Assembly: GCA_963809895.1 (NCBI GenBank)
Contig: CAWELD010000003.1
Location: 2,688,001-2,752,000 of the forward strand
Length of the DNA: 64,000 bases
From: an uncultured Gemmatimonadales bacterium
Lineage (GTDB): Bacteria; Gemmatimonadota; Gemmatimonadetes; Longimicrobiales; Gaopeijiaceae
Direction: 5' to 3'
In this document: positions 3,222 to 56,447 of the stretch, piece by piece
Layout of the letters: every line of letters starts with the position of its first letter
How positions within the stretch are numbered: the stretch's first letter is position 1
The notes under the pieces: generated by a model
What the model saw: the letters and a program-made list of their open reading frames with translations, nothing else
Database searches by the model: none
Told to the model about the DNA's origin: nothing
Translations under genes and position numbers: made by a program

Positions 3222-3270
3222 GCGCGACACGAAGACCTGAGCACGGCATGACACCGACGCGGGAAACAAC

Positions 3271-9981: not shown

Positions 9982-10065
9982 CGCCCGGCCGTGGCGCGCT
10001 CTCGAAGCGCGCAGCGACGCGACGCAATCACATCAGCAAGGGGTGAAGCTTTGACGGAGGACGTG

Positions 10066-11091: not shown

Positions 11092-11095
11092 CGCC

Positions 11096-12016: not shown

Positions 12017-12022
12017 CGCGCC

Positions 12023-14170: not shown

Positions 14171-14174
14171 CGGG

Positions 14175-25876: not shown

Positions 25877-26197
25877 GTGAAGGGAGAGCGCCTGGGCGAG
25901 TTCGAAGAGCTGGTCCTGCTGTGCGTGCGACAGCTCGGCGACGCGGCCCACGGAAGTGCCATCCAGGAGGTCCTCTCCGACGAGGCATCCCGAGACGTCA
26001 CGCTGGGCTCCATCTACTCGGCCCTGGACCGGGCACAGCGGAAGGGTCTGGCGGACTCCTGGATGGGCGAGCCCACCGCGGTCCGGGGCGGTAGAGCCAA
26101 GCGCCATTACGCCGTCACCACCGAAGGCGAGGAGGCCCTCCGGGAGAGCCGCAGAGTGCGGGAGCTGCTGTGGGTCGGGTCGGGAGGCGCCGGATGA
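25877..26197 (+). CDS. PadR-family transcriptional regulator
   Basis: LGEFEELVLL...GSIYSALDR..RKG...RGGRAKRHYAVT.EG; AT-rich segment upstream (25821-25856). Confidence 0.93.
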   Translation: MKGERLGEFEELVLLCVRQLGDAAHGSAIQEVLSDEASRDVTLGSIYSALDRAQRKGLADSWMGEPTAVRGGRAKRHYAVTTEGEEALRESRRVRELLWVGSGGAG

Positions 26198-28908
26198 CCC
26201 GCCAGGAGCCGGAGCTCCCCCGGCTCCTGCGCCGGCTGCTCGCCGCGATCCTCCCCAGCGATCGCCGGGAGGACGGCCTCGGCGATCTGGAAGAAGGATA
26301 CCGGGCCCGCTGGAGGCGGAAGGGCCCGGCCTCGGCGCGCCGCTATCTGTGGCGGGAGACCGCGTCGTTGCTCCGTTGGCGGCTCCTGGGCCGACACGGG
26401 ACCGACGCCGCACGGGCTCAGGAGCCGAGCAGATCGAGCCTCGACACGACGATGGGAGGAGGGACGATGGGACGGGATCTCGGGCTGGACCTGCGCTTCG
26501 CCGTGAGAACGCTGGCCCGCCGGCCGGGCTTCGCCTTCACGGCGATCCTCGTGCTGGGGCTGGGCATTGGCGCCCCCACCACCGTGCTCACGTTGGTGAA
26601 CCGCATCTTCTTCTGGCGCCCACCCGAAGTCGTGGAGCCTCACCGCTTGCTGAGGATCTATCGCTCGTGGGCACCCGGTGAGGGCGGTGGGTCCATGCAG
26701 AACGCCGACTTTGCGTACTACCGTGACAACGCCACGACGCTGGCGGCCCTGGCAGCGTTCAGCGGAAACGTGACCGTGTCCTGGTCCACCACCGCCGACG
26801 ACGCCGGCCAACTCGAGACGCGCTTCGTTTCCGCCAACTACTTCGGCCTGTTGGGCGTGGAGCCGGAGCTGGGCCGGACCTTCCTTCCCGAAGAGAACGC
26901 GGACCCCGGCACCCACCCCGTGGCCCTCCTGAGCCACGGCTTCTGGCGAAACGCGCTGGGAGCGGATCCCACCGTCGTGGGTCGGAGCATCACCCTCAAC
27001 GGACATCCGTTCACCGTGGTGGGCGTCGCGCCGCCGGACTTCCAGGGCCTGAGCCCCGTGGATCAGGTCCCCGACGCCTGGGTGCCGCTGGCCATGTTCG
27101 GGACGCTGACCCGGGCGGCGTACACCTCGTGGTGGGAGCGGCTCCCGAACCAACGGAGCAACTGGCTCTCCCTCGTGGGTCGGCTCGCGCCCGGCGTGAC
27201 CTTCGAGGCGGCAGACGCGAACCTTCAGGCGCTGTCGGCATCCCTCACCTATCCCGGGCGCCCCGACGAGGAAGGTGTGCTGGTCACTCGGGACTACCTG
27301 TACCGTCCCAGCCAGAGCTCCATGCTGACGACGCTGTCGGGACTCCTGCTGGCGGTGGTGGCCATCGTTCTCGTGGTGGCCATGGCCAACGTGGCCGTGC
27401 TCCTGCTGTCCCGCGCGTCCACGCGCAGCCGGGAGCTGGGCATTCGCACCGCCATGGGCGCCGGTCGGAGTCGCCTCCTGCGGCAGCTCCTCACCGAGGC
27501 GCTGGTCCTGGGGCTCGCGGGCGGCGCTGTGGGCGTGGCGCTGGCCTGGACGCTCTCGGACCTCGCGGCGTCGCTGCTCCCCCTGTCCTTCGTCGGCAGC
27601 TTCAGGCCCGACGCGCGGGTGCTGGCCGCGGCGGTCGCACTCTCGCTGGTCACGGCCATGGGCGTAGGCCTGGTGCCGGCGTTGCGCGGCGCACGTGGGG
27701 CGGCGGCCACCATCCACGGCTCCCGGGTGGCGGGCGGACAGAGCCGTGTCCGCGACGCGCTGGTGGTGGGCCAGGTGGCGCTCTCGCTCACGCTGGTGGC
27801 GGGCGCGATCCTCTTCGGACGCAGCTTCTGGACCGCGCACACCAAGGATCTGGGTTTCGAGACCGACCATCGCCTCGCTCTTCAGGTCGACCTGCGAGCG
27901 CGTGGCTACGAGCCGCCCGAGGGGCGAGCCTTCATCTCCAGCGCGCTGGAGCGGCTGGCCGCGCTCCCTGGGGTCGAGGAGGTCACGACCTCGCGCATGA
28001 TTCCGTTCCAGGGGGATTGGAGCGGCGACTTCACGCCGCCTCCGGGGGCCCGCCCCAACACGCCGGAAGGCCAGGCCTTCACCGGCTACAACGTGGTGTC
28101 GCCTGGCTACTTCCATTTGATGGGCATGCCCATGGTGCGCGGGCGACCCTTGGGCAGCGAAGACGTGGAGGGCAGCACGCCGGCCGTCGTGATCAACGAA
28201 AAGCTGGCCAACGACCTGTGGCCTGGCGAAGACCCTGTGGGGCGGACCCTCCCGCTCAGCGACGACAGGGATTTCACCGTCGTCGGCGTCGCGGCCAACG
28301 CCACCTACTACGAGCTGGACGAGGAACCGACGCCGCAGCTCTGGGGCTCGGTACAGCAGCTCTACCAGTCGCAGGTGGCCTTCCTGGTCCGGACCTCGGG
28401 CCCGCCGGCGTCCGTGGTTCCGGCCGCGGAGGCCGCACTCCGGGAGCTGGACCCCACCCTGGCCTTCGGAACGGTGACCACCCTGGACGCGGTATTCGAA
28501 GAGGTGACGGCCCGCTACCAGGTGTCCGCCATCCTGGTGGGGATCTTCAGCGCGCTGGCACTGGTGCTGGCGGTGACCGGGCTGTACGGCGTCGTCTCCT
28601 TCGCCGTCGTGCAACGGACGCGCGAGATCGGGGTGCGCATGGCCCTGGGCGCCGACCGCGGCCGGGTGGCCCGCCAGGTTCTGCGCTCCGGGCTGCGGCT
28701 CGCGGGGCTGGGCGTGGCGCTGGGCCTGCTGGCGGTGATCGCCTTGCGCGGGTTCACGGCGAGCCTGCTCTACGGCGTCGAGCCCGGAGATCCCCTGACT
28801 CTCGCCGCGGCGACGCTCACGCTCGTGGCGGTCACTCTGGTGGCGACGCTGGGACCGGCGCGCCGCGCCAGTCGGGTGGACCCTCTGGACGCCATGCGGG
28901 CCGAGTGA
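26194..28908 (+). CDS. duplicated MacB/FtsX-type ABC permease (ADOP family)
   Basis: DLRFAVRTLARRPGF, ANVAVLLLSR..RELGIR.AMGA, LVVGQVALS, RTREIGVRMALGA, PARRASRVDP; ATGA overlap with padR. Confidence 0.95.
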   Translation: MTRQEPELPRLLRRLLAAILPSDRREDGLGDLEEGYRARWRRKGPASARRYLWRETASLLRWRLLGRHGTDAARAQEPSRSSLDTTMGGGTMGRDLGLDLRFAVRTLARRPGFAFTAILVLGLGIGAPTTVLTLVNRIFFWRPPEVVEPHRLLRIYRSWAPGEGGGSMQNADFAYYRDNATTLAALAAFSGNVTVSWSTTADDAGQLETRFVSANYFGLLGVEPELGRTFLPEENADPGTHPVALLSHGFWRNALGADPTVVGRSITLNGHPFTVVGVAPPDFQGLSPVDQVPDAWVPLAMFGTLTRAAYTSWWERLPNQRSNWLSLVGRLAPGVTFEAADANLQALSASLTYPGRPDEEGVLVTRDYLYRPSQSSMLTTLSGLLLAVVAIVLVVAMANVAVLLLSRASTRSRELGIRTAMGAGRSRLLRQLLTEALVLGLAGGAVGVALAWTLSDLAASLLPLSFVGSFRPDARVLAAAVALSLVTAMGVGLVPALRGARGAAATIHGSRVAGGQSRVRDALVVGQVALSLTLVAGAILFGRSFWTAHTKDLGFETDHRLALQVDLRARGYEPPEGRAFISSALERLAALPGVEEVTTSRMIPFQGDWSGDFTPPPGARPNTPEGQAFTGYNVVSPGYFHLMGMPMVRGRPLGSEDVEGSTPAVVINEKLANDLWPGEDPVGRTLPLSDDRDFTVVGVAANATYYELDEEPTPQLWGSVQQLYQSQVAFLVRTSGPPASVVPAAEAALRELDPTLAFGTVTTLDAVFEEVTARYQVSAILVGIFSALALVLAVTGLYGVVSFAVVQRTREIGVRMALGADRGRVARQVLRSGLRLAGLGVALGLLAVIALRGFTASLLYGVEPGDPLTLAAATLTLVAVTLVATLGPARRASRVDPLDAMRAE

Positions 28909-28957: not shown

Positions 28958-30001
28958 GTGAGACTCTCGCGTATCCTCCGTTCGCCCGTCGGGCTGGTCC
29001 TGGCGCTGGTGGCCGACCTCCTGACCGGAGGCCTGAGCCCCCTGCACGCGCCGGGGCCCGTATCCCTGGACGCAGCCATGGCCGCGCAGGCTCGGGTGAC
29101 CGACGACTGGCTGACCATGCCCGGGGTGGTTGGAACCGCTGTGGGACTGGGCCCCCACGGCGGCGCCGTGGTGAAGGTCTACCTCACGGCCGCGGGCGTC
29201 GCGACCCTGCCCGCCAACGTGGCGGGCGTGCCCGTGCAACTCGAGGTGACCGGGCCCATCGTGGCGCTCGGTGAGCTCCCCGCGACCGCGGCCCGAGACG
29301 GGGGCGTGGACCCCAAGCGCGGTTTCCCCCGTCCCGTACCCATCGGGGTCAGCACGGGCCATCCCGACGTCACGGCCGGCACCATCGGCGCCAGGGTCAC
29401 GAACGGGACCCGCGTCTTCGGCCTCAGCAACAATCACGTCTACGCCGCCAACAACGGCGGGCGCACCGGCGATCCCCTCCTTCAGCCGGGCGTGGCCGAC
29501 GGCGGGCGGGCGCCCGACGACGTGGTGGGCACGCTCTACGACTACGAGCCCATCCGCTTCTGCAGCATGGGTCTGTGTCCGGCGAACGCCATCGACGCGG
29601 CGCTGGCGGCCACCACGCCGGAGGACCTCGGCGTCGAGACGCCGGAAGGCGGGTACGGAGCTCCCCGGTCCACCACGGCCGAGGCCCGCATCGGGCTGAA
29701 GGTCCAGAAGTACGGACGCACCACCGGCCACACCCGGGGTCGGGTGACGGGCCTCAACGCCACCATCAACGTGAGCTACCGGACGGGCACGGCCCGCTTC
29801 ACCAACCAGATCGTCGTCACCGGCGATGGCTTCAGCGCCGGTGGCGATTCGGGCTCACTCATCGTCACCGACGGCGTTCTGGCCGGTGACCGCCGGCCCG
29901 TGGGGCTGTTGTTCGCCGGCAGCGCCAACAGCACGATCGCCAATCCCATCGACGCGGTGCTGGCGCGCTTCGACGTCACCATCGACGGAGGCGGCTCGTG
30001 A
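28958..30001 (+). CDS. trypsin-like (S1, Nal1-type) serine protease with N-terminal prodomain
   Basis: Triad motifs LSNNHV, IDAALA and GDSGS; also AGTIGA, KYGRTTGHTRG, VGLLFAGS. Confidence 0.9.
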   Translation: MRLSRILRSPVGLVLALVADLLTGGLSPLHAPGPVSLDAAMAAQARVTDDWLTMPGVVGTAVGLGPHGGAVVKVYLTAAGVATLPANVAGVPVQLEVTGPIVALGELPATAARDGGVDPKRGFPRPVPIGVSTGHPDVTAGTIGARVTNGTRVFGLSNNHVYAANNGGRTGDPLLQPGVADGGRAPDDVVGTLYDYEPIRFCSMGLCPANAIDAALAATTPEDLGVETPEGGYGAPRSTTAEARIGLKVQKYGRTTGHTRGRVTGLNATINVSYRTGTARFTNQIVVTGDGFSAGGDSGSLIVTDGVLAGDRRPVGLLFAGSANSTIANPIDAVLARFDVTIDGGGS

Positions 30002-30585: not shown

Positions 30586-33030
30586 TCAGCCGCCCTCCTC
30601 CAGAATGCGGGCGGGATCGGTGCGTGACGCCCTGAACGCCGGCAGCAGGCTGGCAGCGAGCGCCAGCATCGCCATGAAGAGGATCACCGCTCCGTAGACG
30701 GCCGGATCCGCCGGTCGCACCTGGAAGAGGAGGGAGCCGAGGGCGCGAGAGGCGGCGAAGGCCGCACCCAGCCCCAGAACGGTTCCCCAGGCGGTGAGCG
30801 CCATCCCCCGGCGGGCGATCATCCTCCGCACCTGCGCGGGGCTCGCCCCCACCGCCATGCGCAGCCCGATCTCGGAGCGCCGCCGACCGACCATCAGGGA
30901 CAGCACGCCGAAGACCCCGAGCGCAGCCATGAGGGCCGCGACGCTCCCGAACACGATGGAGAGCGCACCCAGCGCCCTGCTGGAGCTCAGCGCGTCGTCC
31001 ACGTAGGACTGCAGCGTGCGCACGCGGATCACCGGCACCCCGGGCTCCCGCGCCGCCACGGCGCGGCGGATCACGTCGGTGGAGAACGGAGCGCCTCGCG
31101 TCTTCAGGACGAGACTCAGCGCCACGCCCCAGTTGGCTCGAGACTGATGGACGGGCACGTAGACCTGGATGCGTGAGGGCGCACCGAGCTCGTAGTGCCG
31201 CACGTTGGGTACCACGCCCACCACGGTCCGCCACACCGGCTCGGGCTCGCCGCCCGCCGCAGGACGATTCCGTTCGAAACTGATCTTTCGGCCGACGGGG
31301 TTCTCACCCGGCCAGTACAGCTCCGCCATGCGCTCGTCGATGATCGCCACGAGCGGACCGTCGGGTTGGTCCTCGGGCCCGAAGGCGCGCCCCGACAGAA
31401 GCGGAATCCCCATGGCCCGGAAGTAGTCCGTGGAGACGATGTCGTAGAGCACCGACTCGCCGCTGTCGGGATCGTAGGGCACGTTGTCGGGAAGCACCCG
31501 CAACTCCCAGGAGCGGTTGGAGAGCGGCAGGAGGAGGCTGGCGGCGGCCACCTCCACACCGGGCTCTGCCGCCAGCTCCTCCCGGACACCGTCGTAGAAG
31601 GAGAGCCACGATGCCCGATCCGGGAACGTGCCCCGGGGGATGCTGACACCGGCGGTGAGCACGCCCTGGGAGACGAACCCCTTGTCCACCCCCGCGAGCT
31701 CGCGGAAGCTCCGCACCAGCAGGCCGGCGCCCACCAGAAGGACCAGGGACAGCGTCACCTGTGCGACCACGAGCCCGTCGCGCAGCCGATCACCGTGCCG
31801 GCCGCCCATGGTGCGGGCGCCCTGGCGCAGATCGTCCCTGCCCGCCGCCCGAGCCGCCCTGCGGGCCGGCACGAGGCCCGCCAACAGGGCGCTCGCCACC
31901 ACGACGACCGCCACGAACACCAGCACGGAGCCGTCCAGAGAGATCCGGCCCGCCACCAGCGCCGGAATCTGGACCGGCAACGCCCGGGGCAGCGCCCGTA
32001 CCATCACCGCCGCCAATGCGAGACCCAGGGTGCCGCCCACCACGGTGAGCGCCACGTTCTCGCCCAGGAGCAACCGCACCGCCGAGCCTCGTCCGGCACC
32101 CAGGGCGGCTCGCACGGCCAACTCGCGGTGCCGGCCCTCACCCCGGGCCAGCATGAGGTTGGCCACGTTGGCGCACGCGATCAGAAGGAGCACTCCGGCA
32201 CCGGCCAGGAGCACCCACAGCCCGACCTGCACGTCGGCGAGGAAGCGGTCCGCCAGGGGCTCGACGACCGCTTCGGAGAAGGGCCGGCCCTCGAGGGCAT
32301 CCACCTCGTCGGTGACCCGCTTCATGTCGCGCTGGGCCGCCGCGACAGTGGATCCGGGTGCAAGCCGGGCGAGGGCGCCGGTGCCGAAGGAATCGCCCCG
32401 GGTGTCCCAGGGTAGCTGGTCGGCCAGCACACCCATGGGCACGTAGGCCTCGATGTCGGGCCGGGGGAATCCCACCCCCTCGGGCAGCACGCCGGCGATG
32501 GCGTACGGGCGCCCGTCGAGGGTGAGGGTGCGGCCCAGCACCTCGGGATCGCCGCCGTAGGCTCGCTGCCAGAATCCGTATCCCAGCACCGCCACCGGCT
32601 CGGCGCCGCGCTCGGTCTCTTCGCCGGTGAAGAGGCGGCCCAGCGCCGGCTCCATGCCCAGGGTGCCGAAGAAGTCCCCGATGACCAGGGCCCCGTCCAC
32701 ACGCTCCGCGCCCTGCTCGGTGGGACGGACGAAGCCCCATCCCGCCAGGGCGCCCATGGACGAGAAGGCCCGGTTGCGCTGGCTCCAGTCGTGGTAGTTG
32801 GGCACCGACATGGAGACGAGGAAGCCCGTCTGCGCATCGCGGACGCCGACGCTCACCAACCGATCGGCCTCCGGAAACGGCAGCGACTCCAGCAACACCG
32901 CGTGCACCAGGGTGAACACCGCCACGGCGCCTCCGATGCCGAGTCCGAGGGTGGCGATGACCAGGACGGAAAAGCCGGGCCGGCGCAGGAGGCCGCGGAC
33001 GGTGTGTTTCACGTGCGATGCGAGGGGCAT
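30586..33030 (-). CDS. duplicated MacB/FtsX-type ABC permease (ADOP family)
   Basis: LGLGIGG, LLIACANVANLMLARG, LVVAQVTLS, EIGLRMAVGA, PAFRASRTDP. Confidence 0.95.
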   Translation of the reverse strand: MPLASHVKHTVRGLLRRPGFSVLVIATLGLGIGGAVAVFTLVHAVLLESLPFPEADRLVSVGVRDAQTGFLVSMSVPNYHDWSQRNRAFSSMGALAGWGFVRPTEQGAERVDGALVIGDFFGTLGMEPALGRLFTGEETERGAEPVAVLGYGFWQRAYGGDPEVLGRTLTLDGRPYAIAGVLPEGVGFPRPDIEAYVPMGVLADQLPWDTRGDSFGTGALARLAPGSTVAAAQRDMKRVTDEVDALEGRPFSEAVVEPLADRFLADVQVGLWVLLAGAGVLLLIACANVANLMLARGEGRHRELAVRAALGAGRGSAVRLLLGENVALTVVGGTLGLALAAVMVRALPRALPVQIPALVAGRISLDGSVLVFVAVVVVASALLAGLVPARRAARAAGRDDLRQGARTMGGRHGDRLRDGLVVAQVTLSLVLLVGAGLLVRSFRELAGVDKGFVSQGVLTAGVSIPRGTFPDRASWLSFYDGVREELAAEPGVEVAAASLLLPLSNRSWELRVLPDNVPYDPDSGESVLYDIVSTDYFRAMGIPLLSGRAFGPEDQPDGPLVAIIDERMAELYWPGENPVGRKISFERNRPAAGGEPEPVWRTVVGVVPNVRHYELGAPSRIQVYVPVHQSRANWGVALSLVLKTRGAPFSTDVIRRAVAAREPGVPVIRVRTLQSYVDDALSSSRALGALSIVFGSVAALMAALGVFGVLSLMVGRRRSEIGLRMAVGASPAQVRRMIARRGMALTAWGTVLGLGAAFAASRALGSLLFQVRPADPAVYGAVILFMAMLALAASLLPAFRASRTDPARILEEGG

Positions 33031-33100: not shown

Positions 33101-36100
33101 TCAACCCGGACCGATCCAGTCGGGGGCGAATGCGCCCTCGCGGAACTGGCGGAGGTCGGTGCCGTCCGCATTCACGATCCACAGGCCGCTCCACCGCGAA
33201 CCATCGGGATAGAGCTTGGACGCCCCGAACAGGAGTTGTGTGCCGTCGGGGGACCAGGTGGCGCCGACGTTGCCCGTCCAGATGTCGTTCATTCCCAGAT
33301 CGGCGGACACCACGGCGAGCGTGCCTCCTGCAGCGTCTGCGACCACGACATCCGTGAAGCCGTCGCCTCGCCGATGGAGGTAGGCGATGCGGAGGCCATC
33401 GGGCGAGAAGCGCGGACTGAGGGCATCGGGGAAGGCGGCGGTCAGACGCACCACGCCGCTCCCGTCGAACAGGTAGAGGTAGGGGCGATTCTCGCCCCGG
33501 TAGCTGTGGCCCGCGAAGACCAACTTGGTCCGGTCGCTGGACCAGTCGGTGCCGGTGAATCCCCCGATGGAGTCGGCGGCCAGAGGATCGAACAGCAGGG
33601 TGCGGGCGCCGGTGTCGATGTCGATGGCGAAGGGGAGCATGGGCTCGACGTCTGGCGAGTACAGGCCGAGGGTCAACTGCGACGGCCCCGGACCCCACGA
33701 GGGGTGATCCAGAACCAGCCCACTACCCGACTTGTCCTCCACCACCAATTGGCACGCCCCCGTGTCGGTGTCCCAGACCGCGATCCCTGCTTTCGCGTTG
33801 CACGTATTGACGGAATATCCGGCGTAGTGGGTGCCGTCCGGTGACCAGCGCGCCGCCGGGGAGCGACCCGGCACTCGAACAGGGTTGGTGCCGTCCGGGT
33901 TCATGACCCAGAGCCAGCGGTCCGCGTCGTGGTACAGGATGCGTCCCGGCCCAGCCCCGCAGTCGACGACGAGAGCCTCCGTGGTCGGCGTGGTGACCGA
34001 TCGCGGATTCATGCCCTGGAGCAGGCACTCTTCGGGCACGTCCAGCAGCTCCAGGGTGTGCTGACCCGCGCCGACCCCCGGGAAGGTGGTGCTGCCGCCC
34101 TGGGCCTGGACGGTGCGGATGTCGTTGCCGTCCAGCACGACCCGGTAGGTGGCCTGGCCACCGTTGTCGCCCCGGGTGTCGATGGTGACGTCCAGATCAC
34201 CACCCTGGCACGACAGGCTGAAGCTGGCCGTGCCGGTGCCGCCATCGGGCACCGACACCGTCATGGGATTGGGCGCCGCCACGCTGCACTCCGCCGGCAC
34301 GCTGGTGAGCTCCACGGTGCGGTCGCCGGCGTCCACCGTCAGCGACTGGCTGGCGTTGGCGTCGATTGGGCCCATGTCCTGGCCGTCCACCGAGAAGCTC
34401 AGCGTCGCACCCACCGGGAAGGGGCCCGAGGTGTTGGTGGTCACCTCGAGCTGGCCGCCGATGCAGGTCACCGCGAAGGCCACCGTGGTGGTCGAGTCGG
34501 CCACGATGTCGGTCTGCACCGGGTTGTCGCCGTTCACGCTGCAGTTCGGCTCCAGCGCCGCCAGCGCCACGCTGACCGCTCCCGGCGCCAACGCCGAGAA
34601 GGTGACCGAGCCGGTGGGATCGATGGCCTTGGACCGACTCGCCACCGTCACCTGGTAGCCATCGGGGTCGCCGGGGTCGCCCTGGCTCGACGTGCTTACC
34701 TCCAACGTGCCCGCCGTGCCCGCGCCTCCGCTCCCCTGGCACTCCACCTGGAAGGTCAGGGTGCTGAGCATCCCCACCTGGATGGTGGCGGTCTGCGGGT
34801 TCGCGCCCTGCACCGAGCAGTTGTCGGCGATGCCCCTGACGCTCACCTTCCGGCTTCCCAGCCGCACGCTCCGGAACGGGCGGGTGGCGTTGGTGCCGAT
34901 CGTGCCCTGCGCTGCGCCGTCCAGCTCCAGCTCGTAGCCGTTCGGGTCCAGGTCGCCGCCCGTGGTCTGGACCACTACGTCCAGGTCCCCGATGGGACAC
35001 TTCCACTGCGCCCCCTGCAGCGTGGCCAGCGTCTTGGTCTTCGAGTAGTCGCCACCCTTGGGCGTGAGGAAGTCCGCCAGGGAGATCCCGATCTTGGCGT
35101 CCAGACCTGCCGACGAGTCGAAGCCGCAATCGGTGCTGGACGCCGTCAGGCTGGCCTTCGCCCACGGCCCCAGCCCCACCAGGGGGCCGGCGATCCCGTA
35201 GAACTTCAGGTTCAGGTCCGGGGTCAGGCTCACCTTCGCGTCGAGGGTGATGGACACCACCGCCGTGCTGTCGCTGATGCTCGGCTGCTTGGGCGTGAAC
35301 GAGCCGTTGGCGTCCAGGACGCCCTGCCATCCCTGCGTTTCGTCCCAGCGCGCGCCCACGCTCACCGAGTGCGAGGTCTCGATCCCCGCCTGGAGCTTCC
35401 CCTTCAGCGTCGCGTTGGCCTCGAACTTCCCCTTCACCTCCATCTCGGCGTAGACGATGATCGGGACCGCCCCTACCTGGACGTAGACGATCCGCCCCAC
35501 TTCGAAGAGCGTCGCCTCGCGGGTCAGCGATGTGGACAGCTTCGCACCCAACGACACCGCCAGGTCCGTCTTGACGGTCCCGGTGGCGATCCCGTGAAAC
35601 TCCTTCAGCTCGTCGTTCTCACCCCAGGTGCTGCCGAAGTCCAGCGAGGGTGAGAAGCTGAAGCGCCCGTTGGGGATCTTGAACTCGTCGATGATGCTCG
35701 GGCACTTGTTCGCGGGGTCCTTCTCCTTGAAGTACTTGCAGATGTCGAACCCGCTGAAGTCCACGCCCAGCCCGCTGAGCGTCACCCCGGCGGGCAGCGG
35801 CGTCGTCCACAGCGGACCGTAGGCGATACGGACATCGCCCGATGCAGGCTCCAGCCAGGGCGCCGGACCGGCCGGGGCCGGGGCGGCTCCACCGCCCAGG
35901 CCGAAGAGGTCCACCGTGAAGCTCAGGTTGCCGGTGTCGATGAGATCGTCCAGCGTCGCCGGCTCCGTCTCCAGGGTGAGCTCGGCCCCCGCCACCGATG
36001 CCGCCGTCACCGTGCGCAGGAAGCCCAGACCCTGGGCACCCACGATGACGTCGCCCACAGCGATGGCCGGCGGATCGCCGCTCCCCAGATACTGGAACCG

Positions 36101-36556
36101 GTAGATTCCCCGGTCCAGCTCCAGTCGGTCGCTCAGGAGAGCCAGCTCGGTGGAGTCCACCACCATGGCGTTGCTCTCCAGCCGGAACGCCGTCACCGTG
36201 CCCGAGGCGCTGCCCGAACGGCTCGCGACCGTCGCCGTGATGGTCGCGGCCCCGCCCCCCGTCCCCGTGACCAGACCGTCGGAGGAGACCGCGGCGACCG
36301 ACTCGTCGCTGGACGACCACGCCAACGTCTGGCCCGTCATGGCCTGGCCGTTCTGGTCCCGCACGCTCGCCGCGAGCTGCACCGTCTCGCCGTAATCCAG
36401 CGCGAAGCTCGACGGCGACACGGTCACCGTCGTCACCCGAGGTGTCGGGTCCGGGTCGGGATCCGGGTCCGGACCCGTGGGTGGGCCCGACCCGTCTCCC
36501 CCGCAGCCCGCCAACACCAATCCCGCCAGCAAGACCTTCCATCGACCGGTCCGCAT
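33101..36556 (-). CDS. large surface lipoprotein: Big_2 Ig domain, beta-rich domain, four Cys-paired repeats, TolB/PD40-like propeller
   Basis: Lipobox LAGC, PD-dipeptide linker, WSSSDESVAAVSSDG.VT Ig motif, repeated WSPDG/FSPDG. Confidence 0.88.
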   Translation of the reverse strand: MRTGRWKVLLAGLVLAGCGGDGSGPPTGPDPDPDPDPTPRVTTVTVSPSSFALDYGETVQLAASVRDQNGQAMTGQTLAWSSSDESVAAVSSDGLVTGTGGGAATITATVASRSGSASGTVTAFRLESNAMVVDSTELALLSDRLELDRGIYRFQYLGSGDPPAIAVGDVIVGAQGLGFLRTVTAASVAGAELTLETEPATLDDLIDTGNLSFTVDLFGLGGGAAPAPAGPAPWLEPASGDVRIAYGPLWTTPLPAGVTLSGLGVDFSGFDICKYFKEKDPANKCPSIIDEFKIPNGRFSFSPSLDFGSTWGENDELKEFHGIATGTVKTDLAVSLGAKLSTSLTREATLFEVGRIVYVQVGAVPIIVYAEMEVKGKFEANATLKGKLQAGIETSHSVSVGARWDETQGWQGVLDANGSFTPKQPSISDSTAVVSITLDAKVSLTPDLNLKFYGIAGPLVGLGPWAKASLTASSTDCGFDSSAGLDAKIGISLADFLTPKGGDYSKTKTLATLQGAQWKCPIGDLDVVVQTTGGDLDPNGYELELDGAAQGTIGTNATRPFRSVRLGSRKVSVRGIADNCSVQGANPQTATIQVGMLSTLTFQVECQGSGGAGTAGTLEVSTSSQGDPGDPDGYQVTVASRSKAIDPTGSVTFSALAPGAVSVALAALEPNCSVNGDNPVQTDIVADSTTTVAFAVTCIGGQLEVTTNTSGPFPVGATLSFSVDGQDMGPIDANASQSLTVDAGDRTVELTSVPAECSVAAPNPMTVSVPDGGTGTASFSLSCQGGDLDVTIDTRGDNGGQATYRVVLDGNDIRTVQAQGGSTTFPGVGAGQHTLELLDVPEECLLQGMNPRSVTTPTTEALVVDCGAGPGRILYHDADRWLWVMNPDGTNPVRVPGRSPAARWSPDGTHYAGYSVNTCNAKAGIAVWDTDTGACQLVVEDKSGSGLVLDHPSWGPGPSQLTLGLYSPDVEPMLPFAIDIDTGARTLLFDPLAADSIGGFTGTDWSSDRTKLVFAGHSYRGENRPYLYLFDGSGVVRLTAAFPDALSPRFSPDGLRIAYLHRRGDGFTDVVVADAAGGTLAVVSADLGMNDIWTGNVGATWSPDGTQLLFGASKLYPDGSRWSGLWIVNADGTDLRQFREGAFAPDWIGPG

Positions 36557-36733
36557 GCCGCGCTCCATCTCGTGAGATCTCCGTCCGCACGAGGGGATTA
36601 CGTCATACGAGGCGAGTGGGGATCATCGCTGCGGGCCGCCGGCCACGCGTCGGAAGACGGGGCCTACCTCGTCACCCAGATGTACTCGTTCTTGCGGCGC
36701 CAACCTTCCGTCCAATGTCCAGGCGGCGATCCC

Positions 36734-38159
36734 TCATCCCCACCAGGGCGAATCGGGAAGCACCACGGTCGGCCTCCGTCCGGCGCGTCGGCCGTCCAGG
36801 TGCAGGAGGAAGGTGCCGACACCGGCCGCCCCCTGCATGCGGCCGGTCTGCGCCGCCACCTCATCGGGCGACACCCGGTTCTCGGCCTGCACCCAGCGCC
36901 GGCCGCCGGCGTCCTCGGAGGACTGGTCCAGGAGCCAGCGGCCCACACGCTCGGCGTAGGCGCCGTGGCTGTCGTCGCCGGCGGCCTCTTCCAGCGCCAG
37001 GAAGAACTCGCCCACGCCGGCATCGCCGCAGCACTGGCTCACGTTGTTCCAGTAGCCCGGGGAGCGGCGCTCGGGCACGCCGTAGGCCTGGATCGCGGCG
37101 GCGCCCCGGGGAATCCACCCTCTCCACCGGGAATCCCCCGTCGCCCGCGCCAGCGCCTCGAAGAGCCGTGCCGTGCCGACGGGTCCGTGGCACCAGGACA
37201 GATAGTAGAGATCCTCGCCGCCCGGCTCGTGATGGAAGACCGCGCACCCGTCCTCGTCGCAGCGCCCCACGGCCTCGAGGTAGTGCGCGCCCCGCACCGC
37301 CGCCTCCAGTGGCTCGGCCTCGCCCGTGGCGGCGTGCAGCCGCGCCAGGAAGTAGGCCACACCGGCCGTGCCGTGCGAGAAGTTCGGATAGTTGCGGGGA
37401 TATCCGAGAGAGACCAGCCAGCGCAGCCCGCCCGGCGCCTCCTCGCCCAGACCCACCAGGCGACGTCCCGCACCCGCCGCCGCTTCGAGTGCGTCGGGAT
37501 GGTCCAGCGCGTCGTGGGCCCACAGGAGCGTCAGGCCGATGCCCGCGGCGCCCGAGATGATGTCCGACGACGCCTGATCGAGGCTGCCCGAGAGCCCACG
37601 CGAGGCCGCCCCGGTGCGGGCGGGCCGCCGCGACGACCCGGTCCGTGCAGCGCACGGCCCCTTCGCGGAAGCGCGCCTCGCCGCTGGCGCGATGCACCGC
37701 CTCCAGGCAGAAGGCGATTCCCGAGAGTCCGGTGTAGAGGCCCGCGTCCAGCGCCGGCGACGCATCGGTGCGCGCCAGCAGGTGGTCGGCTCCGGCCACG
37801 GCATCGGTCAGCGCCTCGGGACTCCCGGTAGCCGCGTGCACCTCCAGCAGGAAGAGCAGAACTCCTGGCGTCCCGTGATAGAGGCTCAGGTCCTCGTCCT
37901 CGCCGGCAGCGGGGACCACCGGCCAGGTCACGCCGGCGCTCGTTTCGCGCCGGTAGGCCCGGATCCAGCGATCCGCCGCCAGCGCGGCATCCAGAAACGG
38001 CCCCGCGGCGCGATGGCCATCGGCACCCACGCGTTCGAGTGCCGCCGCGCCGCCGGGCGCCAGCAGGAGCGCCGAGCCGGCGGCGGTCACGCGCAGGAAG
38101 TCACGGCGCGTGAGTCCCGGAGAACCCTCGATCAAGCACATGGGCGACCTCCCGATCAT
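36734..38159 (-). CDS. LanC-like (lanthionine synthetase C) protein with Tat signal; frameshift at ~37596
   Basis: TRRDFL Tat motif; GxxG repeats LYHGTPG, LYTGLSG, IISGAAG, FSHGTAG, WCHGPVG, QCCGDAG, MQGAAG. Removing one G from TGG G CTC joins ORFs 36861-38822 and 36734-37804. Confidence 0.88.
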
Positions 38160-39844
38160 GGAGCCGACCGGCTCTCCACGTAGAAGTTCGGGTCCACCTC
38201 GAAGTCGGACGGGTCGGAGAGTGACGTCTCGACGCGCTGCCACGCCTCGGTGGGGTGGATCCAATCGTACTCGCCCGGGGCCAGCGTGACCCGCACGGGC
38301 ATGGCGAACCCCGACACGACATCGGTCCACCGGTACTCCAGCGTGGACCCGTCGAAGCGGTATTCCAGCACCGGCACCATGGTGGTGCGCAGGTACTCGT
38401 CGAAGACCCCGCTCAGGTCCATGCCGGCGTGCTGGCTGATGTAGTCCTCGACCTGCGCGCTGGTGACGGTCTGGTGACGGAAGGTCGCGTTCAGCCCCCT
38501 GAGGATCCCCCGCCAGGCCTCGTCGTCGTCCACGAGCTGGCGGATGGTGTGCAGCATGTTGCCGCCCTTGTAGTACATGTCGCCGGAGCCTTCGTGGTTC
38601 ACCCCGTAGGTGCCGATGATGGGACGGTCGTTCCGGATCAGGGCCCGGGTGCCGATGACGTAGCGCGCGCCGGCCTCCTTGCTGCCCGTGAGACACTCGG
38701 TGTAGAGGTTCTCGGCGTAGTTGGCGAAGGACTCGTGGATCCACATGTCCGCTGCGTCCTTCATGCTGATGTTGTTGCCCCACCACTCGTGCGCGCTCTC
38801 GTGCACGATGATGAAGTCCCACTTCAGCCCCTCACCCGTCGACGACAGGTCCCGGCCGCGGTAGCCGTTCTGATAGCCGTTCCCGTACGCCACCGCGCTC
38901 TGATGCTCCATCCCCAGGTGCGGTGCCTCCAGGAGCTTGTAGCCGTCCGCGTACCAGGGGTACGGCCCGAACCAGTGCTCGAAGCAGGCGAGCATGGGCT
39001 TGACCTGGGCCCACTGCCGCTTGGCCGCGTCCAGATGGTAGGCCAGGGGCCAGAAGTCCAGCGTCAGGGTCCCGGCCTCGCCCTGGTATTCCTCGCTCCA
39101 GTGGGCGTAGGTGCCGGCGTTCACCGACACGCTGTAGTTGTTGATGGGCTCGGTGACGAACCACTCGTAGGTCGTGGTGCCGTCGCTGTTGGGCCGCGTG
39201 CTCCTGAGCCGCCCGTTGGAGACGTCCACCATGGGATCGGGCACCGTGATGGCGATGCGTTGACTGTCGGGCTCCTCCGAGCCGATGTCCTTGTCGGGCC
39301 ACCACACACTGGCCCCCAGGCCCTCGTTGGCGGTGGAGACCCAGGCGTTGCCCAGGCTGTCGGTCTGCCAGATGTAGCCGCCGTCCCAGGGCGGACGGAT
39401 CGCCACCACGGGCCGGCCGTGGTAGTGGACCGTCACGGTCTTCTCGGCCCCCACCGGCTGCGGCGCGGCCAGGGTGACGAAGAAGGCGTTGCCGTCACGC
39501 CGGTAGTCCAGGCGGGCCCCGTCCTGGACGATGCTGTCCACCTCCAGCGGCTCCTGCAGGTCGATCTGCATTTCCCGGGTGGGCCCGGTCACGCGGTAGG
39601 TGATCCCGTTCCAGCCGCGGATCGTGCTGTCCCCGGGCGACACGCGCACGTGGAGGTCGTAGAAGGTCACGTCCCACCAGGCCCGTCCGGGCCCGTTGGT
39701 ACCGCGGAGCGTGTCGGCATGGGTGAAGCCGCGCCCCTGCTGGGCGGCGAGGCCCGCCGGAGTCCCCAGGGCCGCGGCGCACGCCGCCGCCAGCCCCAAT
39801 GCGGCCAGGACCGTCCTCCTCCCCCTCGACCGGACCGGGCCCAC
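38156..39844 (-). CDS. secreted M1-family aminopeptidase
   Basis: LGMEHQ, HESAHEWWGN, WIHESFA, YYKG; signal peptide. Confidence 0.93.
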   Translation of the reverse strand: MGPVRSRGRRTVLAALGLAAACAAALGTPAGLAAQQGRGFTHADTLRGTNGPGRAWWDVTFYDLHVRVSPGDSTIRGWNGITYRVTGPTREMQIDLQEPLEVDSIVQDGARLDYRRDGNAFFVTLAAPQPVGAEKTVTVHYHGRPVVAIRPPWDGGYIWQTDSLGNAWVSTANEGLGASVWWPDKDIGSEEPDSQRIAITVPDPMVDVSNGRLRSTRPNSDGTTTYEWFVTEPINNYSVSVNAGTYAHWSEEYQGEAGTLTLDFWPLAYHLDAAKRQWAQVKPMLACFEHWFGPYPWYADGYKLLEAPHLGMEHQSAVAYGNGYQNGYRGRDLSSTGEGLKWDFIIVHESAHEWWGNNISMKDAADMWIHESFANYAENLYTECLTGSKEAGARYVIGTRALIRNDRPIIGTYGVNHEGSGDMYYKGGNMLHTIRQLVDDDEAWRGILRGLNATFRHQTVTSAQVEDYISQHAGMDLSGVFDEYLRTTMVPVLEYRFDGSTLEYRWTDVVSGFAMPVRVTLAPGEYDWIHPTEAWQRVETSLSDPSDFEVDPNFYVESRSAP

Positions 39845-39846
39845 GA

Positions 39847-41394
39847 TCAGTTCGCCGCCGTCACGGAGCCGCCCCCGTCCGACGTGCGCTGGATGAAGCC
39901 CGCGACCTCGGTCTTGAAGCGCGCCAGCGCCGGCTCGTAGAGGTACATCATGTGGCCCGCCTCGTACTCGACCCGCTCCACGTTGCCCCGGAGCTCGGGG
40001 GGAAGGCCCAGGTGGTCCATGGTGTAGTCGGCGGCGAAGTAGGGGGTGGCCAGGTCGTGGAGGCCGCTGTTGAGCATGACGTGCAACGTGGGATTCTGGC
40101 GCATGGCGCCAGCCAGATCGACCGCGACGTTGGTGTGACCCGGCCAGCCGCGCTGCTGACCGTGTTGCCAGTTCCAGGGATTCACGTTGCCGCTGATCCG
40201 GTAATCCCTCGTTCCCTCGTACCCCAGCTCGTCGCGCAGGTAGCGGTTCCAGGAGGACGCGTACGCCGAGCTCACCGACGCGCTCTGAGGGTCGAAGTCG
40301 GCCCGCTCGCCCACGCCGTCTTCGGTGAAGCCGGTGAAGCGAGCGTCGAGCCGGCCCAGCACGACCCCGGTTTCGCGCATGAGCTCCTTCTCGAACTGGC
40401 TGTTGTCCACCCGCAGGTCGGCGGCGTCCAGATAATCGACGCTGAGCCCCGTGTAGCGGTGGAGCTTCTGAAGCACCTCCTGCCGCGCCTGGCCCGTGAG
40501 CTTGTCGCCCTGGAGCAGGGCATCGGCGTATTCGGTCACGGCGAAGTGCTCCACCTCGTCCAGGAGCGGCTGCAGCTGGGCCGGCTGATCGGGGAGAGCG
40601 TGGTGATAGAACGCCACGGCCGTGTACGAGGGCAGGTACAGGAAGTACGGAATGTCGTTACCGGGGTTGAAGGTGATGGTCTGGAAGTCCAGCACCGCCG
40701 ACACCAGGATGATGCCGTTCAGGTCCACGTTGGAGCGGCCTTGCAGCACGGCTCCCAGCGCCGCGGAGCGGGTGGTTCCGTAGCTCTCTCCCAGCAGATA
40801 GCGTGGCGAGTTCCAGCGGTCGTTCTCGCTCAGGAAGCGGGTCACGAACTGGGCCAGCGACGAGGCGTCCTCGTCCACGCCCCAGAAGTCACGCCCCTCC
40901 GCGTCGCCCAGCGGACGGCTGAGCCCCGTGCCCACCGGATCGATCATCACCAGGTCGGTGACATCCAGGATGCTGTACTGGTTGTCCACCAGGTCGTAGG
41001 GCGGCGGCGGCACGTGCATGGTGTCGGGCGTGGCCACCCGCTTGGGACCCAACGCGCCCATGTGCAGCCACACCGACGAGGAGCCGGGCCCGCCGTTGTA
41101 GGCGAAGGTGAGCGGCCGGTGGTCCATGTCGGTCACCCCGCTCCGGGTGTACGCCGTGTAGTAGACCTCGGCGGTGGGCTTGCCGTCGTCGTCGCGCAGG
41201 ATGACGCTCCCCAGCGTGGCGTCGTATTCCACCGAGCGGCCGCCGATGCGGGCCGAGTGATGCGTGACGACATGCGTGGGCTGGACCTCGGCGGCCTCGC
41301 CGCGACCATCCGCCGTGGTCTGCTGGGCGAGGGCGGCGGGCGGTGCGACGAGGGCCGTCATCAGGAGCAAGCTTCCGGCAGGTGCGATTCTCAT
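39847..41394 (-). CDS. secreted S10-family serine carboxypeptidase
   Basis: YNGGPGSSS, IDPVGTGLS, GESYG, DLATP, GHMMY; GGAGG before ATG 41394. Confidence 0.93.
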   Translation of the reverse strand: MRIAPAGSLLLMTALVAPPAALAQQTTADGRGEAAEVQPTHVVTHHSARIGGRSVEYDATLGSVILRDDDGKPTAEVYYTAYTRSGVTDMDHRPLTFAYNGGPGSSSVWLHMGALGPKRVATPDTMHVPPPPYDLVDNQYSILDVTDLVMIDPVGTGLSRPLGDAEGRDFWGVDEDASSLAQFVTRFLSENDRWNSPRYLLGESYGTTRSAALGAVLQGRSNVDLNGIILVSAVLDFQTITFNPGNDIPYFLYLPSYTAVAFYHHALPDQPAQLQPLLDEVEHFAVTEYADALLQGDKLTGQARQEVLQKLHRYTGLSVDYLDAADLRVDNSQFEKELMRETGVVLGRLDARFTGFTEDGVGERADFDPQSASVSSAYASSWNRYLRDELGYEGTRDYRISGNVNPWNWQHGQQRGWPGHTNVAVDLAGAMRQNPTLHVMLNSGLHDLATPYFAADYTMDHLGLPPELRGNVERVEYEAGHMMYLYEPALARFKTEVAGFIQRTSDGGGSVTAAN

Positions 41395-44151: not shown

Positions 44152-46807
44152 CTACAGCCCGCCGTCCTGCATGTCGGTGGTGATCCTCGCATCGGTATCG
44201 GGAGCCTGGAGGTAGACCTCCAGCCACGCCGTCCACCGCGCCCACAGGTCCAGGAGCGTCTCCTTCGTGGCCGGGCCGTGATCCTCGTAGGGATAGAGGT
44301 ACATGGCCGCGTCCTTGCCCAGGCCGTTGAGGGCGTGGAACATGCGGGGCGTGTGGTCCGGATCCGTGCCCACGTTCTGATCGCCCAGCCCGTGGTACAT
44401 GAGCAACGCACCCGTGAGCTCGTTGGCGTACAGGAAGGGTGACATGCGCAGGTACACGTCCCGGGCATCCCACAGGATGCGGCGCTCGTTCTGGAACGAG
44501 AGGGGCGTGAAGGTCCGGTTGTAGTTGCCGTCGCCGGCGATGCCCGCCTTGAAGAAGGGCGTGTGGACCATGGCGTTCGCCGTGCTGAAGGCGCCGTAGG
44601 AGTGCCCACCGATGCCGAGCCGCTGGCGGTCGATGAGGCCCCGCTCGTCCAGCTCGTCGATGACGGCGGCCAGGTTGTTGCGCAGGTCGTGCTCGTAGTT
44701 GTTGTTCATCTGGCCCGCCTTGCCCACGATGGGCGCGTCGGGCTCGACCACGGCGTAGCCCAGCCGCACGAGATACTCCATGCTGCGGGTGCCGAAGCTC
44801 GGGAACGAGTTCTTGTTGAAGGTGCGCGCGCCCTCGTCGTAGTCCTCCTGGCCCTCGTACTCACGAGGGTAGAACCAGAACATGGCCGGCAGACGCGTGC
44901 CCTCGCGGTAGTCCGGAGGCAGCGTCACGGTGACGCGGAAGCGGAAGCCGTCGGGCCGCTCCACCACGAACCGCTCCACGCGCGCTGCGGTGAGATCGGG
45001 CGTGTAGTCCACGTTCTGCGTGAGCTGCGTGCGGGTGCCCCCGTCCAGGCGGTAGGACTGCTCCACCTCGGTGGGACTCTCGTGGGTCAGGACGAACGAA
45101 CGGGCGTCGATGTCCAGGATCGCGGTGAGGCGCTCGTAGACGCCGTCGTTGTCGGCTTCGAAGATGCGCTCCTTGTCGCCGGTCTGGATGTTCACCTGAT
45201 CCAGGAAGGGCCTCGGACCCGTCGCCATGGGATCCTCGTCGTACGCGGTTCCGGCGAGGTAGACGCTCTGTCCGTCGGCCGAGAGCTGCACCGTGCTGGC
45301 CTCGCCTCCGCCTCCCCCGAAGAAGCGGAACCGGCCACCGCCCGGGACGCTCCCGTCGGTCATGACCAGGCTGCCCGGGTTCGCGTAGAAGTCGTCGGAG
45401 TCGTAGCGCGCCAGCGTGTGCCGGGTGTCCGGATCAGCCAGGGAGACGGCGTATTGATGCACGCGCGTGCCCTGCCGCTCGCTCAGGAACAGCATCTGCA
45501 TGTCCGGCGAGAAGTTGTGGCTGGTCATGCGGGTGTCGCTCTCGTAGACCACGTTCAGGCTGGTGCTGTCGAAGGGCGGCAGCCACTGCATGACGCGGTC
45601 CTTGCGGCGCGAACGGGCCTGGCCGCCCTCCTGTCCGGCGGCTCCCCGGTCTGCTGGAGCGTCCGCCCCAGCGCTGTCCGGGGCGGGCTCCTGCTGCAGG
45701 AACGTCAGACCCTGCCCGTCGGGACGCCACGCGAGCTGCCGGCGTCCGCTGTCGTTGCCGTTCCGGGCCGAGCCCTGATCGTCGTCCCGGATCCCGGTGT
45801 TCAACTCGGTGGTGTCCAGGACCGCCAACACGCTTCCCTGAGCATCCCAGATCTCCTCGACCCGCCCGAAGCTGCTCACGGGAACGAGATAGCTGAAGGG
45901 CTTGATCATGCGGGTCACCCGCACGTAGCGGCCGTCGGGAGAGAAGTCGAAATCCCGGACCATGGTGGGGGCGCCAACCTGGTGCACCCGGCGCCCGTCC
46001 AGCTCGACGTAGGCGAGCTGACCCGTGACGTCCCACTCCAGCAGCGCCTCGTCGTAGGGTGTGGCCATCAGGCTGGCGTAGGTACGCAGCATGTTGTCGC
46101 CGTCTTCGGTCATCTTGACCTGCGGCCCCGTGGGAGCCGACGGGCTTCGCCGGCATGGCCGGACGGTTCTCCGGCACGAGCACGACACCGATGGCCTTCC
46201 CGTCGGCGGTCCACTGGAAGCCGGTGGCCAGCGTGGCCAGGACCGGGCGCCGGGTGAGTTGGCGCGAACGTCCCGTCGCCGGGTCCGCCACGAAGATGTG
46301 CGTGGCGTCGTCGAAGTGGGCGTAGAAGGCGATCTGGGACCCGTCGGGCGACCACTCCGCGTCGGACACCCGAGCTCCGTCGGGGACCGACACGCGCACC
46401 TTGGACCCGTCGGCGGCGGAGATCACCTCGATCCCCACGTTGTTCCGGATCGTCAACGTGCGGCTCCGATTCGCCTTGAAGTCCACGAACAGCCCGCCCA
46501 GCTCGTGGAACGGCTTCGAGAAGACGTCCATGGTCACCGGTCCGTCACCCACCTCGTTGAGGAAGCGGGTCCGATCGGGACTCACGTCGCTGAGTGTGAC
46601 GTTCAGGTACCGGGGCGCCAGCACCGCCTCGGTGATGGCGGACGGTGGCTGCACGTACTGCTTGGCGGCCAGGATCTCGCGGGCGTCCCAGCCGTTGTCC
46701 TGCTGGGCCACGACGGGCTGCGCGAACGACGGCAGCACCGCGAGAAGAAGGAGCGTGACAGACCAGCGGGCTCGTGCGAGGCCGCGCCGCTCAGGGCGAA
46801 CGATCAT
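44152..46807 (-). CDS. secreted S9 prolyl-oligopeptidase-family peptidase; frameshift at ~46143
   Basis: WSPDG propeller, GHSYG, DQN, YEDHG. Removing one C in AAG CCC GTC G joins ORFs 45434-46840 and 44152-46188; GGAGG before ATG 46807. Confidence 0.9.
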
Positions 46808-47023
46808 ACCCGCCTCCGGGTGGAAGTCGAGGAGGTCCATAAGCGCGTCGGGGAGGGCACTCGAGGACGTTGCTTGGGCACGCCCTCAGACATTGCGGGA
46901 GACACCCGAAGGGGCAAGGGCGTTGGAGAAGGCGCGCCGAGCAGCGCCTGGCCTTGCCCCCGCCGCAGCCCTCGGACAGGTTCAGGATTCGCTGTCCCGT
47001 ACTCCCCGCAACGCGTTCCCATC

Positions 47024-55910: not shown

Positions 55911-55976
55911 CCTGTCCGGCGGGTCTTGCGGCATACTCAGGGGCGTTCGCTCCCCTTCCCTCTTCCATGCCCGCCC

Positions 55977-56447
55977 GTGACGCCCAAGCGCTCCCCATCC
56001 GCACGCTCCAGCAAGCTCGTCCTCGTGGGATGGCGCGAATGGGTGGCGCTGCCCGACCTGGGGATCCCCCGGATCAAGGCGAAGATCGACACGGGGGCCC
56101 GATCCTCGTCGCTCCACGCCTACGACATCCGGCGCTTTCGCAGGAAAGGGCGCTCCATGGTGCGCTTCCGGGTGCATCCGATCCAGAAGAACACCCGGAC
56201 CACGGTAGAGGCCGAGGCGGAGCTCTTCGACCAGCGCAAGGTCCGCAGCTCGTCGGGTCAGGAGTCGCTACGCTGGGTGATCGTCACCGAGCTGGACGTC
56301 GGCGGACGGCGCCATCCCATCGAGATCACGCTGACCCGACGTGACGCCATGGGCTTCCGCATGCTGCTGGGCCGCCAGGCGCTTCGTCGGCGCTTCATGG
56401 TGGATCCGGGAGCCTCCTTCCTCGCCTCCTCCCCTCCCTCCCCATGA
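55977..56447 (+). CDS. RimK-associated retropepsin-like peptidase (RimB / ATP-dependent Zn protease family)
   Basis: [40 protein letters not shown]. Confidence 0.92.

Follow-up and report, generated by a model that had tools for sequence, protein, structure and literature searches.

What does a LanC-fold protein do when it carries an export signal and lies beside two peptidase genes? The question is raised by a window of 64,000 nucleotides (nt) from an uncultured Gemmatimonadales bacterium (assembly GCA_963809895.1, contig CAWELD010000003.1, positions 2,688,001 to 2,752,000), the minus strand of which carries genes for an S10 serine carboxypeptidase, an M1 zinc aminopeptidase and a LanC-like protein in tandem, head to tail (Table 1). 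The bacterial LanC enzymes in the portions of the papers cited here are biosynthetic and act together with a dehydratase. Judged from its sequence, the LanC-like protein is a member of a widespread family of predicted exported, stand-alone LanC-fold zinc enzymes with signals of the twin-arginine translocation (Tat), Sec or lipoprotein type. We infer that its site of action is the periplasm or the cell surface and that it acts as a C-S lyase, with the LanC chemistry reversed. In more specific terms we propose, tentatively and with slightly less than even confidence, an extracytoplasmic zinc-thiolate enzyme that would open thioethers by a retro-Michael reaction in scavenged peptides or S-conjugates.

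The exported LanC-fold family and its putative zinc site

The LanC-like gene is the sole PF05147 gene found in this genome, which is 95% complete. It is split by a frameshift (see below), and PF05147 matches both halves. With the 3' half as query, 3271 proteins were retrieved among 8000 scored candidates; the best 120 of these are 53-69% identical (self match aside) and mostly 430-490 residues long. Among the 119 closest non-self homologues, 88 carry a twin-arginine (RR) motif and 16 a Sec-like hydrophobic start, which gives export-type N-termini in 104/119 by pattern, with lipoboxes in several; 11 start inside the core and four are unclassified. With E <=1e-30, a profile search yielded 820 representatives, the top 150 of which all reach <=1e-105. 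The 146 new representatives, clustered at the 50% level, comprise 26 with an RR motif, 55 with a Sec-like start, 16 others and 49 too short to call (export-type N-termini in 81 of the 97 callable ones). The window protein itself begins with TRRDFL followed by a hydrophobic stretch, its match to the Pfam TAT_signal model (E 0.0027) being below the cut-off, and TatC is encoded in the genome. A search of the ESM Atlas returned solely clusters of the same LanC-fold family at a value of at least 0.95.

A search of 401 genomes of the phylum detected the family in 44, a count that takes in this genome and the unpublished genomes G213 and G234, and it also occurs in Acidobacteriota and others. Its distribution is patchy, the 19 other genomes of the same genus holding one full-length degenerate copy and one distant copy. 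The family is mobile and moves freely among gene neighbourhoods. Selenocysteine was considered and rejected: the TGA or TAG codons flagged in many matches are terminal stops in the rows examined, not active-site codons, and the one internal TAG (locus L075) is not an active-site codon either.

The model of homologue P0002 (mean predicted local distance difference test score 90.7) has seven helical hairpins arranged as an alpha,alpha-toroid. Its best fold match is the cyclase domain of the class IV enzyme CuvL (Z 38.8), with GCR2, LanCL2, MadC, NisC and LanCL1 at Z 33-36 and glycosidases at no more than 24.7 (GH47, 24.7). All catalytic motifs of the window copy lie in the 3' part of the gene: DIISG at 37564, NFSHG with the acid/base His at 37384, SWCHG with a zinc Cys and the oxyanion His at 37198, and SQCCG with two zinc Cys at 37039, together with the family-specific FHHEP (37237) and QAENR (36889). 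NFSHG, WCHG and CCG recur in 119, 119 and 118 of the 119 homologues. Across the 146 representatives, the acid His is conserved in 141 of the 145 rows with a residue, the zinc cysteines in 145/146, 143/144 and 142/144 (the latter two forming the CCG pair), and the His after the first zinc Cys in 140/146. According to the portion of PMC9934072 used here, LanCL1 binds zinc through Cys276, Cys322 and His323, with His219 as the acid and His277 holding the enolate oxygen; once the His219 equivalent is replaced, the retro-Michael reaction is lost. The acid His, first zinc Cys, following His and CCG Cys of the family match His219, Cys276, His277 and Cys322. The zinc ligands and acid His of the LanC superfamily are thus present in the sequences and form a putative zinc site.

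Beyond the LanC set, His301, Arg323, Asn364, Glu418, Arg420 and Gln434 (P0005 numbering) are near-invariant, and therefore suggest that the family has a pocket of its own. These residues also speak for another extracytoplasmic reaction, such as O-linked beta-elimination, alpha-carbon epimerisation of peptides, or glycoside hydrolysis with a cysteine nucleophile of the GH127 type, and so do weak GH127 Pfam matches within the helical repeats of family proteins, a GH29-like fusion and alpha-fucosidase adjacency in one lineage, and neighbours resembling N-acyl-D-amino-acid deacylases and M19 peptidases. GH127 enzymes have a three-Cys zinc site, and GH127 and GH146 share a six-hairpin barrel, a Glu-x-Cys motif and a Cys-Cys zinc site. 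The family has seven hairpins, however, its top fold matches are all LanC proteins, Ser or Gly precedes WC, with no Glu two residues ahead of the first Cys, and the complete thia-Michael set is retained together, which makes such a reaction unlikely, if still worth weighing. GH127 is absent among the fold matches listed, which does not exclude likeness.

The 29 longer relatives include clean fusions of the LanC domain with peptidase domains (S41, S58 and DUF5700), with a degenerate GH29-like domain (9 related proteins), a pectate lyase, two esterases and a hydrazine-synthase-like domain, and with TPR regions. Together these partners suggest a degradative setting outside the cytoplasm and name no substrate. 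Two apparent fusions, P0131 (amidohydrolase) and P0134 (M20), both contain a second RR signal inside the chain and were set aside as artefacts of read-through. The GH29-like group (P0132, P0133, P0135, P0136 and P0138-P0142; 53-81% mutually identical) combines an intact exported LanC domain with a degenerate fucosidase-like domain, and in loci L036, L042 and L100 a separate alpha-fucosidase gene lies directly upstream.

Partner genes and the direction of the reaction

A biosynthetic LanC would be expected to have a dehydratase and a precursor peptide within reach. The LanB model was found in four of 42 carrier genomes (the 44 without G213 and G234), each time on another contig than the LanC gene. 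In this 95% complete genome no LanB was found (the model matched no control genome either), no LanM dehydratase domain (a weak negative, as this model also matched no control genome) and no LanY marker. Beside the window gene there is no room for a precursor peptide (gaps of 14 and 166 nt). No kinase or LanM dehydratase domain was present among 26 longer relatives scanned, and the family is otherwise single-domain, with 430-490 aa. The preliminary description of this DNA, made from the sequence alone, had taken the protein for a stand-alone, Tat-exported LanC without a LanB/LanM dehydratase or precursor peptide in the window; that the protein is exported, stand-alone and, as a family, catalytically intact is supported. 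Its remark that the window holds no exporter is true of LanT only: two duplicated MacB/FtsX permeases lie at 26170-28905 and 30586-33030, of a family with 120 matches in the genome.

These results bear on the idea of a trans-acting biosynthetic cyclase or cross-linker, which would turn dehydro residues made elsewhere into lanthionine bridges of exported peptides or envelope proteins. The closest models do belong to the class IV LanL cyclase domain, as shown by CuvL and by NF038150, the best-scoring NCBIfam model (E 2e-40, the score of 139 being far below the cut-off of 650). We nevertheless consider such a role improbable, with no LanB match in 38 of the 42 carrier genomes, no dehydratase in this genome by three models, no shared neighbour and only 166 nt to the next gene.

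In the forward direction outside the cytoplasm, dehydro residues or other Michael acceptors would receive a small thiol (cysteine, sulfide or imported glutathione) or a Cys of the peptide itself; lantibiotics, thiopeptides or damaged envelope proteins would thereby be made harmless, as by eukaryotic LanCL. The favoured direction is that of addition, a His follows the first zinc Cys as in LanCL1, and redox neighbours (OsmC/AhpC, glutathione S-transferase) are scattered among the LanC loci. The CCG motif points the same way, since it marks substrate-tolerant ProcM-type cyclases with low substrate specificity in the part of PMC12328550 drawn on here. Of the residues of the LanCL glutathione pocket (Arg4, His274, Lys317, His323, Arg364, Asp367 and Glu374), His274 and His323 are the two mapped here; both differ, being replaced by Ser/Gly and Cys, respectively. 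Free thiols are scarce in the periplasm. No glutathione synthetase (GshB) was found in this genome, where the control was positive in 3 of 14, so that the forward reaction lacks an obvious thiol supply; on balance we regard it as rather unlikely. A glutathione-conjugate pathway, considered for neighbours of the gamma-glutamyltransferase, M19, M1 and S10 types, was rejected: each occurs in few contexts and no GshB was found in the genome.

The reverse direction is favoured instead by export, by the absence of a dehydratase and by the want of an obvious thiol supply, and the clean fusions to peptidase domains also speak for it. The retro-Michael reaction is known for NisC-type cyclases (PMC9934072, in a passage citing Yang and van der Donk 2015). 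In the proposed mechanism, a thioether-bearing residue of a scavenged peptide (lanthionine, S-alkyl-cysteine or another S-conjugate) would lose its alpha proton to the His of NFSHG, the enolate would be steadied by the His of WCHG, and the leaving thiolate would go to the three-Cys zinc, so that a thiol and a dehydro residue would be formed. Cleavage beside the dehydro residue by general periplasmic peptidases, which are numerous in these bacteria, would then make the opening irreversible, and the freed residue would hydrolyse to a keto acid and ammonia. At this locus, S10 and M1 may fill the role of the general peptidases.

Several points weigh against thioether opening. Thiol addition is thermodynamically favoured over elimination, and net opening therefore needs a coupled step. 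The retro-Michael activity and the substrate are predictions; the ring opening or quenching of dehydro residues that the preliminary description had proposed is compatible with the active site. Fusions do not single out peptides, since GH29-like, pectate lyase and esterase partners occur as well. A peptidase or amidohydrolase is the immediate neighbour of LanC in 12 of 37 contexts, as compared to 4 of 17 other Tat-signal genes (Fisher p 0.75), a small control from this one genome, and on the same strand in 8 of 37 as compared to 4 of 17 (p 1.0). The 37 contexts are shared neighbourhoods collapsed by hand, drawn from 112 open reading frames scanned, 90 of 179 listed neighbours and 20 more; the enrichment of peptidases near LanC, suggestive at first, was dropped as not above the control. 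Within the genus, the homologue of G012 (L097 8301-9668) keeps the signal and the CCG pair and has lost the acid His and the first zinc Cys; this copy and the one of G015 (L116 8382-9719; only 31% identical) are possibly non-catalytic offshoots. Finally, the window copy itself is frame-shifted and carries, in its last LanC motif, an Arg (36841-36839, minus strand) at a place mostly taken by Tyr, Leu, Phe or Trp in the representatives, which could be error, drift or decay.

The locus, its frameshift and the peptidase neighbours

The features of the locus are collected in Table 1; the export signals and catalytic motifs of S10 and M1 were judged by pattern and by eye.

Table 1. Features of the three-gene locus (positions in the window).
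Feature	Coordinates	Strand	Evidence
S10 serine carboxypeptidase, 515 aa	39847..41394	-	PF00450 E 8e-12; GESYG and YEAGHM motifs; Sec-type N-terminus
M1 zinc aminopeptidase, 562 aa	38156..39844	-	PF01433 E 2.4e-14; HESAH motif; signal-like N-terminus
Ribosome-binding site GGGAGG of the LanC-like gene	38148..38153	-	sequence
Likely start (ATG 38141) and twin-arginine signal peptide	38040..38141	-	TRRDFL motif spanning 38111-38094; predicted cleavage site
LanC-like gene, 5' part (signal, first helical hairpins)	37595..38141	-	PF05147 E 1.4e-8; aligns with homologue N-halves
One extra, frame-shifting base	37593..37597	-	probable assembly error
LanC-like gene, 3' part, all catalytic motifs	36734..37594	-	PF05147 E 1.1e-20

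The S10 gene has GGAGG ahead of its ATG, and its stop is separated by 2 nt from the GTG start of M1, which has no ribosome site of its own; coupling of these two genes is plausible for both reasons. For the junction between M1 and LanC, contigs of runs X1 (3 other letters in 395) and X2 (1 in 298), both more than 99% identical, span the site, and each lacks one base at ~38147. An ATG at 38159, which overlaps the M1 stop, is therefore out of frame in both strains. GGGAGG stands 6 nt upstream of the ATG at 38141, and the MC start and RR offset that this ATG gives are the same as in the close homologues P0002, P0003, P0025 and P0048. This ATG is likely the true start, 14 nt past the M1 stop, in an operon-like arrangement without overlap. 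S10 and M1 may share a transcript here. A scan for promoters and terminators gave no signal above chance, and two contigs of RNA run X14 match parts of the S10 gene letter for letter, with none from this run being informative for LanC, although contigs cannot show expression. Parts of the stretch left uncovered in the comparison with run contigs carry no evidential weight.

The preliminary description had the three genes either 2 nt apart or joined by an ATGA overlap, all with export signals, and had noted a superfluous G near 37596. The spacing of S10 and M1 and the export signals stand, the ATGA overlap with LanC probably does not, and the extra base is real in the assembly and most likely not in the gene. 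The alignment of homologues, which are unbroken proteins of ~470 residues, puts this base within the interval given in Table 1, and in run X2 one base at ~37593 is missing from a 588-nt contig that has 43 other letters (~93% identical). When tested with proteins of relatives, four of 39 genes of the assembly were frame-split, LanC included (3/38 others). In the window, an S9 peptidase gene (44152-46840, minus strand) is split over two overlapping frames, both parts of which are covered consecutively by a same-genus homologue, probably by another assembly indel; an S10 paralogue (G000 C3:167668-169189) is frame-split in the assembly as well. Unbroken homologues, the X2 contig and the other split genes together make an assembly error the likeliest cause, though the spanning contig is from a different strain.

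That the gene at this locus is a recent pseudogene is a separate question, compatible with any reading of the family. It would account for the frameshift in the assembly and for the unusual Arg, the sole contig spanning the frameshift comes from another strain, and a degenerate copy occurs in a same-genus genome. Every catalytic residue is intact, however, third-position GC is 0.85 and 0.89 in the two coding frames, and the assembly has the further splits described above; we judge decay of the gene to be decidedly unlikely.

The preliminary description had read the three genes as a translationally coupled module that degrades lanthipeptides, and had named linkage of homologues to M1 and S10 as a test of it. 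The homologue loci do not support this. M1 is found in none of the 25 loci from named assemblies and in none of 51 further loci (0/76, many of these loci ending early at contig ends). S10 occurs in 0/25 and 11/51, all 11 of them among the 13 loci fetched for genus g36, where S10 lies on the opposite strand, 4-6 kb and two or more genes from LanC, and the LanC genes of this genus form a clade apart from that of the window in a quick tree. Genus g36 is the sole support for an S10 link among the loci. The nearest LanC relatives (L023 and L024) adjoin an aminotransferase and an efflux pump. Six of the 19 same-genus genomes have M1 orthologues, and the fetched DNA around these shows neither S10 nor LanC; the 13 closest S10 orthologues (61-69%) sit in genomes where the LanC family was not found. 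Among far-flank genes, 9 of 82 are peptidases. The same-strand gaps of 2 and 14 nt, the bridging of the M1-LanC junction in near-identical strains of two runs, and the more distant S10 of genus g36 are what such a module has in its favour; with M1 never found and S10 never on the same strand among the homologues, other neighbours beside the nearest relatives, orthologues that occur without LanC, and an ATGA start out of frame in two strains, a dedicated module is highly improbable. S10 and M1 are interchangeable local neighbours of LanC, not conserved partners.

Two lineages keep operons of their own, one with a threonine dehydratase-like gene, an amidohydrolase and LanC, the other with a propeller-amidohydrolase, LanC and a pyridoxal phosphate (PLP) decarboxylase. 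In L037-L041, L094, L095, L098, L099, L101 and L115, threonine dehydratase-like, N-acyl-D-amino-acid deacylase-like and LanC genes form a conserved run, with an S58 peptidase nearby. In genus g36 (L081-L083, L085, L106-L113) the run is likewise conserved: S10 and DUF2784 lie on one strand and a propeller-amidohydrolase of 1100 residues, LanC and often the PLP decarboxylase on the other.

Downstream of LanC in the window, by 166 nt and on the same strand, is a gene for a lipoprotein-like protein of 1155 residues with Ig-like repeats and a propeller (33101-36568, minus strand), and contigs of near-identical strains cover both sides of this junction. The plus strand encodes a secreted-looking protein with similarity to Nal1_C and S64 proteases (28958-30001), a cluster of DUF4159, TPR, MoxR AAA, DUF58 and BatA genes (2292-18246), and a cluster of zinc protease, RimK ligase, deacylase and amino-acid permease genes (55926-59722).

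Known LanC proteins and wider meaning

The LanC-fold family resembles three known systems and differs from each of them. The cyclase domain of class IV LanL enzymes (CuvL, PDB 8car/8cav) is the closest in fold (root-mean-square deviation 2.8 A over 351 residues) and in PDB sequence matches (E 2e-18) as well as by NCBIfam, with the CCG-type motif aligned, but the family has no lyase or kinase domain and carries an export signal, and the window gene has no room for a precursor beside it. Eukaryotic LanCL1 and LanCL2 (PDB 8czk, 6wq1; Z 33-35.5) are likewise stand-alone, without a linked dehydratase, and have the equivalents of the acid His, zinc Cys and oxyanion His. The family differs in being bacterial and exported, in a Cys instead of His323 as third zinc ligand, in the missing His274 contact and in an identity of only ~15%. 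The class I enzymes NisC and MadC (PDB 2g02, 8byk; Z 34.8 and 35.4) share the separate LanC polypeptide and the toroid fold. They are cytoplasmic and lie beside lanB and lanA, their first Cys is followed by Tyr, and their ligand pair is Cys-His, in contrast to the family, which has no lanB in its clusters and the RR or Sec-like N-termini counted above.

LanC-like proteins without a dehydratase nearby have been noted before. Walker et al. 2020 counted 1392 PF05147 proteins that remained unexplained, some near proteases and ABC transporters (PMC7268733); the portion of that paper used here suggests biosynthesis of unknown RiPPs (peptides made on ribosomes and modified after translation), not catabolism, for these 'unclassified' proteins, and describes neither export signals nor such a clade. 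A 2026 study lists 1567 unclassified sequences and, in the part used here, describes no exported clade (PMC13552915). We found no account of an exported stand-alone bacterial LanC in the open-licence PMC and bioRxiv literature.

The most far-reaching version of thioether opening would make the family the first extracytoplasmic LanC-fold thioether lyase, exported by soil and sediment bacteria to open the lanthionine rings that shield lanthipeptides and cross-linked proteins; in this full form the claim is doubtful. The pairing with peptidases is only local, and a false lead is thereby removed. If thioether opening is true, it would account for the recycling of protease-resistant lanthionine rings in the environment, it would open a possible route of lantibiotic resistance by an inactivation mechanism derived from the biosynthetic cyclase itself, and it would provide a reagent to open rings ahead of peptide sequencing. 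Intact soluble homologues of ~435 residues are suited to standard assays. That the family is large, tightly conserved and exported, keeps its active site intact and lacks biosynthetic partners suggests that the LanC fold has a second job.

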